Below are positions 15,443 to 18,722 of a stretch of DNA of 20,000 nt, one piece after another (positions within the stretch are counted from its first letter, which is position 1; each line of letters opens with the position of its first letter). Under the pieces are notes generated by a model that made no database searches, was not told the origin of the DNA, and worked only from the letters and a program-made list of their open reading frames with translations. This DNA is from an uncultured virus (IMG/VR IMGVR_UViG_3300000228_000008) (lineage: Duplodnaviria > Heunggongvirae > Uroviricota > Caudoviricetes). Both the position numbers and the translations under genes were made by a program. Location: IMG/VR virus record IMGVR_UViG_3300000228_000008, one strand, 5' to 3'.

Positions 15443-17335
15443 ATGAGTTTATCTGGGTGGGAAAGTTCAAATAGATTACAATTTTCTATATCTAATGGGT
15501 ATATTCATGATTATACATCTGTAGTACCAATTTTATTTAGGCTGTCTTCAAATACAGGTTCAAGTAATACAGATATAACCTTTGTTTTTACTAATATGGA
15601 AGAGTCTGGAAGTAGCTATATGAATAGAAAGAAGGTAGCTTTTTCACAACTAGTGAATGGTGTAGAAGTAGAATTAAGGGCAGAGTTAGATATGTGGGAT
15701 CATGCCAATAAAAAGGCTATTTTTTGGGTAGAACCTCTGGAACTGTCTTCAGAATATATCAATGTTTTTTACTTTTATTATAACAAGGCAAAAGCAAGTA
15801 ATGTTACTTACATTTTAGAAGCGTCTGATATAACTAACGGTTCATCTTTTATATGGGATACTAAGTTTACTTCTGTACATCATTTTAATCCTTATTTTGG
15901 CTATATCAATTCCACAAATACAAATGGCTCGGTTATTAGTTTAAATAATGTTACGTCGTCTTTATGTAGTTTAGGCGGACATGCATTAACGTTTAGTAGC
16001 TCAACTAGCTACGCTGATTTAGGTAACTATACTAAATATAATTACGGTACAACAGCACATACATTAATTTTTGGAGCTATAAACTCAGGGAATATACTTT
16101 TTTCTAAAGGGCTTTACTCAGATTGTACCACAACACTATATTATCAAGAAACACCAACACTAATTAATGACTCATTTGACGATGATTTTGTAGGACCAGT
16201 TGGGACTATCCCTGATATATGTTTATGGACTGTTAGAGTTGGTAATCCATTACAAAATGCTGGCTCTTTAGAGTTTTCACAGGCGTTAGATGAGAGATTA
16301 CGTTCTAATTTTTATGTTGGTGGTTCAGGTACACTAGTTACTGTAAACTTTAATATAGTAGGTGGAGAACTAACTTCAGGATGGTTATTAGGCCTACGTG
16401 TTAGACTTTTAGGGTTTACTTACGATTATTTAATACAGTTTACACCATCCGGTAGTAATATTGTTATTAGTTTTTTAAGAGTGTCAAGTGATACTTATAC
16501 TGTTTTGGAGTCTGTTGGAATAACAACACTTACAGCAGCTGGTTTTATCGGCACTTTTAAAGCCTCTATTAGTGGCACCTCTTTATGTTTGTCTTGTTAT
16601 TACGATGGTTCTTGGAGAACTTTTACTTGTATTACTGTACCAAGTACATTAGCCTATGGTTATATAGAAATAGATAAAAAACAAAGTACTTCAAGTAATT
16701 TAACTAAATTTTACATATCTAATTATAGGTCTAACTATGAAAATTCTTTTTTTAGACGTTCTTCTAAAAATAGCAATGTTCTTTCTCTTGAAAGTCGTAT
16801 AAATAATCAGAAACGTTTTTTAGAAATACCAGAATTCATTTTAAATTCTGCTTGGTCTTCATACTCTTTTGGTGTAGCTTCTGAAATACTAACAGCAAAA
16901 GCAGTAGTAAGTGAGAGTAATTCAGGACACTTTAGTGGTATTTTTGAAGGCACACAAACTAATACTTTATCAGTTATTTTAGGGGATAGTGTTTCTGGTT
17001 TTATTGGTAAAATTTCAGAAATATTTTTTTTCAAAACCCAGCAAAATGAACACACTATATTTTTAATTACTAAAAGTTTAGAAGACTCTTTAATAAGCAT
17101 TAGTAGATATTTTTTAAGAGGTTATACAACTATAGAAAATAGACCATTTAGTACAACAGTACTTGCTTATGACAAGGATACTGGTGATTTATTATCTACT
17201 GCAGTTTCAAAAGATATAGATGGTTATTATTACATGGAGGTACCTATAAAAAATAATTATTTTATTGTAGGTTTGGGTTCTACAATGTACAATAATAAAA
17301 TTTTAAGTAATGTTACACCACAAATTATTTTTTAG
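15443..17335 (+). CDS. DUF2341-like plus LamG-like domain protein (630 aa), putative tail/receptor-binding protein
   Basis: N-terminal GW..R...I...PIL..L...EL..ELD.WD....A.FWV....L......FYFYY and IWD..F.SVHHF are DUF2341-like. ALTFSSSTSY and FIGKISEI are LamG-like. AGGA RBS upstream. Confidence 0.75.
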   Translation: MSLSGWESSNRLQFSISNGYIHDYTSVVPILFRLSSNTGSSNTDITFVFTNMEESGSSYMNRKKVAFSQLVNGVEVELRAELDMWDHANKKAIFWVEPLELSSEYINVFYFYYNKAKASNVTYILEASDITNGSSFIWDTKFTSVHHFNPYFGYINSTNTNGSVISLNNVTSSLCSLGGHALTFSSSTSYADLGNYTKYNYGTTAHTLIFGAINSGNILFSKGLYSDCTTTLYYQETPTLINDSFDDDFVGPVGTIPDICLWTVRVGNPLQNAGSLEFSQALDERLRSNFYVGGSGTLVTVNFNIVGGELTSGWLLGLRVRLLGFTYDYLIQFTPSGSNIVISFLRVSSDTYTVLESVGITTLTAAGFIGTFKASISGTSLCLSCYYDGSWRTFTCITVPSTLAYGYIEIDKKQSTSSNLTKFYISNYRSNYENSFFRRSSKNSNVLSLESRINNQKRFLEIPEFILNSAWSSYSFGVASEILTAKAVVSESNSGHFSGIFEGTQTNTLSVILGDSVSGFIGKISEIFFFKTQQNEHTIFLITKSLEDSLISISRYFLRGYTTIENRPFSTTVLAYDKDTGDLLSTAVSKDIDGYYYMEVPIKNNYFIVGLGSTMYNNKILSNVTPQIIF

Positions 17336-17364
17336 TTGACATGTCGTCCATATTGAGTTATAAT
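17336..17364 (+). promoter_or_regulatory. Perfect-consensus sigma70 promoter for the dnaN-hyp-recA operon
   Basis: TTGACA (17336-17341), 17 bp, TATAAT (17359-17364), immediately after the upstream stop codon. Confidence 0.9.
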
Positions 17365-17385
17365 TATTATTAATTCAATAAAAGG

Positions 17386-17581
17386 TTAGTTGATAGTAAA
17401 CAAATCATTAACTATTAAAAAACAATGTTATTAGCGCACAAGATAGAATTAAGACCGAATCCTGTTCCAGTCCGACACGATTGAGCGGACTTAACTGCAC
17501 AGAAGAGATTTGTAAGACCACTTGTGGCAGAGTTGTTGACGCTGTGAATAACTATAACGAAAGTTATGATTTTACAATCGG
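17386..17581 (+). mobile_element. Internally deleted IS607/IS200-605-superfamily (TnpB) mini-element
   Basis: Bounded by GG at 17384-85 and 17580-81. Imperfect inverted ends: GATAGTAAACAAATCATTAACT versus the right end's reverse complement GATTGTAAAATCATAACT. Contains a TnpB-like N-terminus and an omegaRNA-like scaffold. Excision restores AAAGGAGttattATG. Confidence 0.7.
17425..17484 (+). pseudogene. tnpB: tnpB 5' fragment (MLLAHKIELRPN-PVPVRHD*)
   Basis: The first 12 codons match the typical TnpB N-terminus (M-x-x-A-H/Y-K-x-x-L-x-P-N, helix-turn-helix OrfB_IS605 region). The similarity then stops. The match is short. Confidence 0.65.
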
Positions 17582-17600
17582 AGTTATTATGGAATTTATT
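17461..17600 (+). ncRNA. Putative TnpB omegaRNA (reRNA) scaffold plus flanking guide
   Basis: Stems: AGTCCG/CGGACT (17469-74/17486-91); CACAG/CTGTG (17498-502/17542-46) enclosing GTAAGACC and a CCA-CTTG-TGG hairpin; ATAAC-GAAA-GTTAT GNRA hairpin (17554-67). The layout parallels the CCTG...GTAAGACC...TGAAGCAGGAA pattern of tnpB 3' ends. Confidence 0.55.
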
Positions 17601-18722
17601 GTAGATTTGTTTGCCTTTCAAAAGGCTTTAAAACTTTTTGGATCTGTTGCTAAGGCTTCTTCAGAAGAAACTGATGGCCAAATTTTTATGGAAGTTAGGG
17701 GTTCTGGAGAGCTTATATTACTTTGTAATAGTAAGGGCATGTCCATAACACATGTAATACCTAATTGTAACGTTAAGGTCGTAGGTGTAGTTTCCGTACT
17801 ATATGGTAAACTAAGTTCCTTTTTGTCAGCATTCTTTTATCTATCAGAAGGAGTTGGTGTTAAAGATGTAAAAGTAAAAGCATTAAAAAATGAATTGTCT
17901 TTAACCGTAGTTGGCTTAGCTCCAAGTGGTAAAAGTACTTCACATAAACTAAAACTAAAACTCTTTCCCCCGCAAAAGATTTCTTTACCATCCCCGTTTA
18001 CTGATACCACTTTCGAGCTTAACTGCGCTACATTAAAATTAGCATTATCTAAAGTGTTATATGCCGTTAACCCTGCTTCTGTTAGATCTTTTTTACAAGG
18101 TATTAATTTAATTTTTACTGAGGATAATTTATATTTCGCAGGAACTGATGGTCAAAAATTATCAGAGTACAAAACTCCAAACACAAGTAAGTTTTTAAAA
18201 GGTAACCACATAGTTTCTTTTACTTTTTTTAATACTTTAAAAAGAATAATAGGTAGTGATCACCCTGTTTATTTTTCTATGATTGAAGGAAAGATTAAAG
18301 CTAAATTTTTAAATACTGTTTTACATGGTACATTAATTTTAGGTGAAGAATATCCCGATTATCAAAGAGCATTTAATAATTTCACTGATTCTATTGTAGT
18401 AGATAAAAATATATTTCTATCTTGTTTATCTCCAATACTACCCACATTAGACCCAGAAGATCATAACAGATTGACTTTACAAATTAGTAATAAGAAACTT
18501 ACATTAAGTAATGATTACGCGGAAGCAGAATACAGCGACGAGTTAGTATTTGATAAGGACTTTGTTATAGATTTAAATGGTAATTATTTATTAAACACTA
18601 TAAATTCCATAATGGATGATTTAATAACTATACAGTTTTCAAACGATACAAGCGCTTTAATTTTTGATGCTACACAATTTAATAATCAGAAATCTTTAAT
18701 TACTCCTATTAGGAGACATTGA
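17589..18722 (+). CDS. dnaN: DNA polymerase III beta subunit (sliding clamp), 377 aa
   Basis: The true start is probably ATG 17589 (MEFIVD), after GGAG. Motifs: KVLYAV...RSFLQGI...FAGTDGQKL; LILGEEYPDYQRAF; IDLNGNYLLNTI; LITPIR at the C-terminus. Size fits a beta clamp. Confidence 0.92.
   Translation: MEFIVDLFAFQKALKLFGSVAKASSEETDGQIFMEVRGSGELILLCNSKGMSITHVIPNCNVKVVGVVSVLYGKLSSFLSAFFYLSEGVGVKDVKVKALKNELSLTVVGLAPSGKSTSHKLKLKLFPPQKISLPSPFTDTTFELNCATLKLALSKVLYAVNPASVRSFLQGINLIFTEDNLYFAGTDGQKLSEYKTPNTSKFLKGNHIVSFTFFNTLKRIIGSDHPVYFSMIEGKIKAKFLNTVLHGTLILGEEYPDYQRAFNNFTDSIVVDKNIFLSCLSPILPTLDPEDHNRLTLQISNKKLTLSNDYAEAEYSDELVFDKDFVIDLNGNYLLNTINSIMDDLITIQFSNDTSALIFDATQFNNQKSLITPIRRH

Follow-up and report, generated by a model that had tools for sequence, protein, structure and literature searches.

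The window, meaning the whole 20,000-nucleotide stretch that was analysed, is AT-rich (30.4% G+C) and phage-like. A row of large ORFs of unknown family (2271, 1048, 702, 547 and 630 aa) ends at 17335, the sliding clamp gene, dnaN, begins at 17589, and 3′ of dnaN come a 192-aa ORF and then, from 19287, a RecA/UvsX-like gene (PF00154, 5e-64). Comparison of 17000-18000 by blastn with 50,697 phage records gave no match and with plasmids gave chance-level short matches alone (best E 0.7). Phage relatives sought via DnaN in viral contigs numbered zero, and the DnaN search of metagenomes returned one 1236-nt contig, covering residues 221-377 alone. The features of the dnaN leader and of dnaN itself are as follows.

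17336..17364, plus strand: candidate sigma-70-type promoter, TTGACA-17-TATAAT, a 12/12 match lying in the flank, outside the element
17380..17385, plus strand: left flank AAAAGG, the likely TAM (a putative role) and GG core, which in the empty allele is the 5′ part of the dnaN Shine-Dalgarno
17386..17581, plus strand: non-autonomous IS607-family mini-element, 196 bp, delimited by raised depth, a 195-nt contig, contig joints that pass over it and copies in other flanks
17580..17583, plus strand: GGAG Shine-Dalgarno, read from the sequence as the element's terminal GG and the flank's AG
17582..17601, plus strand: predicted guide template AGTTATTATGGAATTTATTG, comprising part of the dnaN RBS and the ATG; relatives diverge after their terminal CGG
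17589..18722, plus strand: dnaN (sliding clamp, 377 aa), phrog_947 at 1.9e-27, with Pfam DNA_pol3_beta_2 and DNA_pol3_beta_3 above cut-off

The promoter, which an earlier note made from the sequence had called perfect, does match the TTGACA-17-TATAAT consensus at 12/12 positions and is the sole such site among 100 promoter-like sites in the whole window, though as a class these sites are not enriched (100 found versus 120.9 expected). Element-free contigs still span 17313-17372, so the promoter region is kept without the element. The runner-up on the plus strand is at 905-933 (TTGACA-17-TATAGT, 11/12), between an ORF ending at 857 and one starting at 1015. The sequence of the empty allele at the dnaN Shine-Dalgarno is AAAAGGAG. 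The element interrupts it between AAAAGG and AG, and the restored GGAG sits seven bases before the dnaN ATG. As it is the terminal GG of the element that rebuilds GGAG, dnaN probably stays translatable. The dnaN frame is open upstream through the whole scaffold described below (17427-17591; ORF 17481-18722, with a TTG start), and LNCTEE in this upstream frame aligns with LKRTQE of TnpB C-terminal tails; that an old tnpB frame runs into dnaN is probably chance.

The stretch 17386-17581 is a discrete insertion. Contigs of four public runs with part of the locus (among 13 listed, no RNA run being one of them) were aligned to 16900-18300, and they show the presence of allele forms, not their abundance. 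X5 and X6 contigs join 17385 to 17587 with AGTTAT between (depth 2.5 and 2.6), and they also join 17372 to 17580 across 14 letters, a variant form of 17370-83 (depth 5.9 and 6.0). Both joint types read ...AAAAGG|AGTTAT..., the empty site that had been predicted for related phages. The first empty allele (the 17385-17587 joint) is one T longer than the precise empty site, and the second (the 17372-17580 joint) has a 3-nt insertion and one substitution upstream. Owing to the extra T, bases 6-8 of the would-be target (within 17582-17592) are TTT in place of the window's TT; this could be ordinary strain variation or a guide-escaping allele. No target is duplicated, and the two empty-site joints share the GG dinucleotide: GG at 17384-85 precedes the element, and GG at 17580-81 forms its last two bases.

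The GG-bounded, 196-bp element that the earlier note had drawn thus holds up, its edges at 17386 and 17581 being marked by the joints, by a 195-nt contig, by loose contig ends and by depth. The 195-nt contig, from X4, corresponds to 17387-17581 with 16 differences, and so diverged a copy indicates that the mini form itself has spread. Contigs have loose ends at 17380/17382 and at 17582/17584 that lead into other flanks, at least two on the left and at least two on the right in the public contigs, from which it follows that the mini form has further copies elsewhere. Word depth is 3-9x higher over 17370-17604 than in the flanks, and in X4 depth over the element is 57-154 versus 17 in the flank. 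Within the window the element is single copy, and exact-word searches for it in viral and genome collections gave 0 matches. The inverted ends that had also been claimed did not survive a repeat search of the element, which found no terminal inverted or palindromic repeats, just two internal pairs, and their absence fits IS607 ends as published (10.1101/2023.11.20.567912).

The left part of the element is composed of three segments.

17386..17424, plus strand: left-end segment upstream of the tnpB start, tnpA absent; longer contigs differ before 17420
17425..17464, plus strand: tnpB 5′ stub, the first 13 codons, MLLAHKIELRPNP, identified by matches to tnpB starts and by an X8 contig that runs past 17464
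17465..17468, plus strand: deletion junction (TTCC); in run X8 the full-length 5′ piece is shared up to 17464 and the 3′ piece from 17469

In the ORF from the ATG at 17425, MLLAHKIELRPNP is followed by VPVRHD and the stop codon 17482-84 (full reading MLLAHKIELRPNPVPVRHD-stop). This 19-codon ORF is the element's own coding in its entirety; there is no transposase or nuclease gene in it. Twelve TnpB-like codons had been proposed, and the first 13 in fact match tnpB starts of Vibrio phages and of a Thiomargarita MAG. The two best blastn matches of the stub in the phage collection (E 1e-3 and 5e-3) fall exactly on the starts of annotated 364-365-aa transposase (tnpB) genes of two Vibrio phages, and the match to the Thiomargarita MAG is 94% over 32 nt. 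The back-translated stub motif found nine viral loci, eight with 299-400-aa ORFs beginning MLLAHKIE and a ninth that runs off its contig, while a narrower back-translated pattern gave 0 matches. Neither tnpB, tnpA, a tldR-like gene nor any other TnpB-family ORF was found in the 20-kb window by PHROG and Pfam searches.

What the stub was cut from can be seen in X8. A 461-nt contig matches 17420-17464 and continues, read by eye, into ...PEQEQFLLQSV, which is normal TnpB continuation, and a 710-nt contig has 489 nt of other sequence before matching 17469-17584 (4 differences, 2 gaps); the two are separate short pieces, unlinked to each other or to any host or phage. With these full-length 5′ and 3′ pieces diverging from the window at 17464 and 17469, the element is an internal-deletion derivative, as had been suspected, and the search for a parent or further copies that had been suggested thereby yielded both, the other flanks in the metagenomes standing for the further copies. 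The longer forms, i.e. contigs matching from 17420 on, carry different sequence before 17420, which fits the loss of tnpA. Loose ends at 17425 and 17456 show that some contigs share just the tnpB start with the window. In these the 19 letters before the ATG are those found in L147-L149, elements of the Thiomargarita MAG with tnpB alone, and a bacterial element of that type therefore co-occurs with the phage in those runs.

The family to which the stub belongs was searched for from a seed alignment, A1, of seven TnpBs, and the related loci found were 17 viral and 81 genomic (80 kept), the latter by record title mostly from purple sulfur bacteria, Beggiatoa/Thiomargarita relatives and methanotrophs. 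Its TnpBs have the Pfam domains HTH_OrfB_IS605, OrfB_IS605 and Cas12f1-like_TNB, and at two loci (L007 and L010) a 217-aa TnpA with MerR and Resolvase domains overlaps the tnpB start. The architecture of the family is that of IS607, and the sequence match of the element to it is in the right end and scaffold, the putative left end lying where relatives carry the TnpA gene. Relatives with a MerR plus Resolvase TnpA, together with the GG flank and GG end, bear out the assignment to IS607 with insertion at GG. The 3′ ends of the family share a block ending ...TTTA(T/G)(G/T)AGCGG, and copies within a genome diverge right after CGG. Two viral members differ from the usual pattern in their gene content: in Vibrio phages OR712157 (L001 2344-3601) and MG592553 (L002 2338-3595) a 66-aa HTH-only gene overlaps a 364-365-aa tnpB, which looks like an IS607 element whose TnpA has lost its recombinase domain, and the scaffold 3′ of these tnpB genes is of a different type from the window's. 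A TnpB relative of 299 aa on a 76.6-kb viral contig (L003 1136-2032, the same as L030), which matches OrfB_IS605 weakly and in part only, may be a shortened or nuclease-impaired form; the scaffold and right-end tip there (…TTTTAACAACGG) are close to those of the window.

The remainder of the element is taken up by the omegaRNA scaffold.

17466..17581, plus strand: complete omegaRNA scaffold, by covariance model R1, nhmmer, a right-end weight matrix and covariation
17469-74/17486-91, plus strand: stem 1, AGTCCG/CGGACT, read directly from the sequence
17478-83/17575-80, plus strand: pseudoknot, CGATTG/CAATCG, from the loop of stem 1 to the 3′ end
17498-502/17542-46, plus strand: P2, CACAG/CTGTG, a family-model helix
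17507-11/17530-34, plus strand: P3, GATTT/GAGTT, with three wobble pairs, a family-model helix
17518-21/17524-27, plus strand: P4, CCAC-TT-GTGG, read directly from the sequence
17554-58/17563-67, plus strand: P5, a short GAAA-closed hairpin, ATAAC-GAAA-GTTAT, a family-model helix
ending at 17581, plus strand: right-end tip TTTTACAATCGG, by a weight matrix of right-end tips

From 64 distinct family tails the window and four with uncertain ends (L026, L028, L072, L083) were removed, and the remaining 59 were collapsed at 90% identity to the 38 from which R1 was built. Of 24 pairs predicted by RNAalifold on these, 19 show compensatory changes. R1 matches the window at 17466-17581 over its full length (model 1-147) with 69.2 bits and a rough E of 2.7e-17, the next best of 15 listed matches in the 20 kb having 11.1 bits, and a sequence-only HMM (nhmmer, 24 non-window tails) matches 17474-17556 at E 1.7e-6. 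The earlier note's claim that the deletion spared the RNA scaffold is therefore upheld, and the covariance-model check proposed along with it succeeds with this model made from other loci, Rfam models giving nothing: the search of 16800-18200 at E <= 10 returned nothing relevant, RAGATH-18 included (best E 1.9, unrelated families), and that of eight family loci returned 0 matches at E <= 0.1.

When the structure is written out with stem 1 and the crossing pseudoknot it has 27 pairs, of which 19 are changed on both sides among 39 sequences. In these 39, the window included, pairing is possible in 93.3% of 1044 cells versus 71.0% when shuffled and 34-45% with slid partners; the covariation score is 0.627 versus 0.210 in shuffles, and 0 of 500 shuffles reach it. 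The MAFFT alignment puts stem 1 and P4 of the window out of register, and those two were read directly. Relatives have the pseudoknot as CGCTCA/TGAGCG, CGTTAC/GTAGCG, CGATCC/GGATCG or CGTTG/CAACG and P2 as CACGC/GCGTG, CACAC/GTGTG or CACAA/TTGTG, so that the window's CACAG/CTGTG and CGATTG/CAATCG are its own compensatory variants. The three stems pointed out earlier from the letters (AGTCCG/CGGACT, CACAG/CTGTG and a GNRA hairpin) all exist, and each belongs to a helix of the family model. At 17509 a common T-to-C variant replaces a U-G pair of P3 by C-G. The fold of the whole 240 nt is unremarkable (z = -0.34), which means that the structure is visible only by comparison with relatives.

The scaffold is kept whole and its RNA structure, as predicted from the letters, is intact. 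In the window it has 4 differences in 116 nt from the X8 full-length 3′ piece, with which the compensatory pairs are shared; these pairs could be a simple inheritance on which selection has not acted after the deletion. Both R1 and the right-end weight matrix end at 17581, and the empty-site joint is at the same base. An alternative right end at 17483-88, GAGCGG, which resembles a family tip, was rejected: these six bases are part of stem 1 (its loop and 3′ arm), and 17581 is the end according to the covariance model, the empty-site joint and the family alignment alike.

Copies of the scaffold without TnpB are frequent in sulfur-bacterium genomes. R1 has 15, 20, 65, 9 and 2 matches in five family genomes, and at 13 of 30 loci fetched tblastn found no TnpB within ~1.5 kb, several more having fragments alone; two of the 13 are at contig ends and not judgeable, and one keeps a few C-terminal codons. 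The 65 matches are in the Thiomargarita MAG (L118, L127, L131, L135), a fragmented assembly with many of them at contig ends. In the same MAG (G003) the TnpB profile has 89 matches, of which just three among those listed (all but 11) span >=360 of 385 positions. Guide-RNA copies may far outnumber nuclease genes there, or the fragmented assembly may distort the count. Multi-copy mini-elements in three bacterial genomes have different left parts, and their similarity to full-length copies starts near stem 1 (0-3 nt before it, ~5-8 nt in one case), the window being alike in this respect. Single decayed copies in the Thiomargarita MAG (L145, L151) are without stem 1, so decay regardless of the RNA also occurs. 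In one genome, that of Thiorhodospira sibirica, there are four copies of a ~256-bp mini-element (L114, L124, L128, L136) with a TTGACA...TATATA-like promoter in the left part directly before the scaffold, and this looks like a gene-less element with its own guide-RNA promoter.

With the scaffold ending at 17581, the guide template is 17582 onward; 17582-17600 is AGTTATTATGGAATTTATT, and at the guide length of about 16-20 nt given in PMC11061315 it spans the dnaN RBS and the ATG at 17589, as had been anticipated. Two other metagenome copies have left flanks ending AAAAGG and AGAAGG, and nine bacterial mini-element flanks end AAGG, AAGG, TAGG, ATGG, ATGG, GTGG, TAGG, GTGG and CAGG. A or T thus precedes GG in 12 of 12 left flanks (three of window type, nine of bacterial minis), versus C always in the right-end tip (CGG), and from these 12 flanks we infer that the difference would let TnpB spare filled sites. 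A Shine-Dalgarno-like TAM, AGGAG, is published for other IS607 TnpBs (PMC11061315).

The explanation that we consider moderately probable is of a gene-less IS607 derivative whose scaffold and guide would serve TnpB in trans for the cutting of element-free alleles. Internal deletions removed tnpA and nearly all of tnpB, leaving the left end, the first 13 tnpB codons and the whole right-end omegaRNA gene, and the element inserted at GG inside the dnaN Shine-Dalgarno. Transcription from the strong phage promoter, which lies 22 bp upstream, would run through it in sense, within the dnaN leader, and give scaffold plus guide, the guide being the first ~20 nt of flank with the dnaN RBS and ATG. TnpB from a full-length copy elsewhere, in host or phage, would process and load this RNA, and the complex would cut alleles with AAAAGG right before the target, i.e. 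element-free copies of the phage locus. Repair of the break from a filled copy would keep and spread the element. Use of the RNA by TnpB in trans is plausible, its chances being about evenly balanced. Rather unlikely, to our mind, is the bolder version of this, in which the element parasitises TnpB by means of a guide alone and works as an RNA-programmed gene drive that operates among phages. Expressed from the strong phage promoter, it would point TnpB borrowed from a host IS607 at the start of the clamp gene in competing phages that share the cell and lack the element, and so would both spread the element and favour the carrier phage. The repeated retention of the scaffold from stem 1 in separate minis would then reflect selection on guide-only elements, and the empty allele with the extra T could be resistant.

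Against trans use stands the possibility, which has a real though minority chance, that the element is an inert relic, moved by a transposase in trans and riding along with the phage, its scaffold intact as the deletion and the insertion are recent and its RNA used by no TnpB. The lack of tnpB in the 20-kb window is in keeping with this, as are the commonness of internal-deletion derivatives with many breakpoints (the 13 of 30 loci without a tblastn TnpB match and the several more with fragments) and the difference of the scaffold from a full-length copy at just 4 of 116 positions. It fits less well with the 195-nt copy that is diverged by 16 differences, so that the mini architecture has spread, with the 17509 variant that turns U-G of P3 into C-G, or with the multi-copy minis of three bacterial genomes that differ in their left parts and yet retain the scaffold from stem 1 on, and stand-alone omegaRNAs are reported to be active in trans (PMC10691335).

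Two further explanations look to the effect on dnaN. That the inserted 196 nt alter stability or translation of the dnaN mRNA by their structure, with no link to TnpB, is improbable. The leader is 196 nt longer, with the ATG 224 nt beyond the -10 hexamer versus 28 nt, and a structured RNA is placed beside the Shine-Dalgarno, but the structure belongs to a transposon family found in many unrelated contexts and the whole-leader fold, at the z of -0.34 given above, is unremarkable. The least likely option, with hardly any probability attached, is RNA-guided control of replication genes, in which a nuclease-dead, TldR-like TnpB relative would bind the dnaN start and tune clamp expression. The guide template does span the dnaN RBS and ATG, and the 299-aa relative with the weak RuvC-region match is on a viral contig; yet the guide is simply whatever flanks the insertion, what stands before the target in this phage is the right-end tip ATCGG in place of the A or T before GG of the 12 left flanks, the window has no tldR-like gene, and the empty alleles show dnaN to work without the element.

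From the perspective of experiment the locus is unusually easy to test, since filled and empty alleles are public, the target is the start of an essential gene and the promoter is consensus. It adds an omegaRNA type that is absent from Rfam, has well-supported covariation and occurs at up to 65 places in one Thiomargarita MAG, and the scaffold is precisely what several gene-less derivatives of separate origin have kept. Should trans use prove true, there would be homing from one co-infecting phage to another, guided by RNA and carried out by a borrowed nuclease. For a phage-borne IS607 element that is gene-less in this way, a search of the open-text literature found no published description. 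Among the possible targets of non-restorative transposon homing a review (PMC13565253) names co-infecting phages, and the free-standing homing endonucleases of T-even phages that it covers are alike, if the window element is active, in that the element-free allele is cut and the element copied in by repair. In the phage element the specificity would in contrast come from RNA and the nuclease would be borrowed.

Among transposons the window element is close to IS607 systems such as the C. botulinum IStron (10.1101/2023.11.20.567912) and ISFba1 with its RAGATH-18-derived reRNA (PMC11061315). In the former report IS607 TnpB drives homing and an RNA stem-loop forms a pseudoknot with the scaffold 3′ end. 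The systems have in common with the family of the window element an overlap of tnpB with the gene of a serine-recombinase TnpA, an omegaRNA that spans the right end, a 3′-end pseudoknot and the lack of a target duplication, and also, as proposed for the window element, a G-rich Shine-Dalgarno-like TAM (TGGG, AGGAG) and a part for TnpB in homing. The window element, unlike these, is gene-less and has no group I intron, and its scaffold of 116 nt is of a different, shorter type than the 187-nt reRNA scaffold. PATEs, which according to Meers et al. 2023 (PMC10055086) 'often encode' omegaRNAs needing TnpB in trans, are similarly minimal and non-autonomous, with both ends and an omegaRNA that depends on the TnpB of another element. 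They belong to IS200/IS605, with a Y1 transposase, palindromic ends and single-strand transposition, whereas the window element has serine-recombinase relatives, a GG core and no terminal repeats; without palindromic or hairpin ends, and with relatives that carry a serine recombinase, it is not a PATE. Nor is it a TldR guide RNA, there being no adjacent TnpB-family ORF in the window.

There is a likeness in kind to the stand-alone OMEGA omegaRNAs (Altae-Tran et al. 2021, as related in PMC10691335), which are mobilised without an effector and active in trans, with a biological role that the same text states to be unknown. They too consist of scaffold without effector or transposase beside effector-bearing copies, with the guide taken from the flank and trans activity reported. 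What distinguishes the window element is a scaffold of IS607 type that is absent from Rfam, and a location in a phage gene leader behind a phage promoter, with filled and empty alleles both public. Given the frequency of TnpB-less copies in its own family and the published omegaRNAs that work in trans, the window element belongs to a kind already known, gene-less and guide-RNA-bearing, of which it is a clear example.
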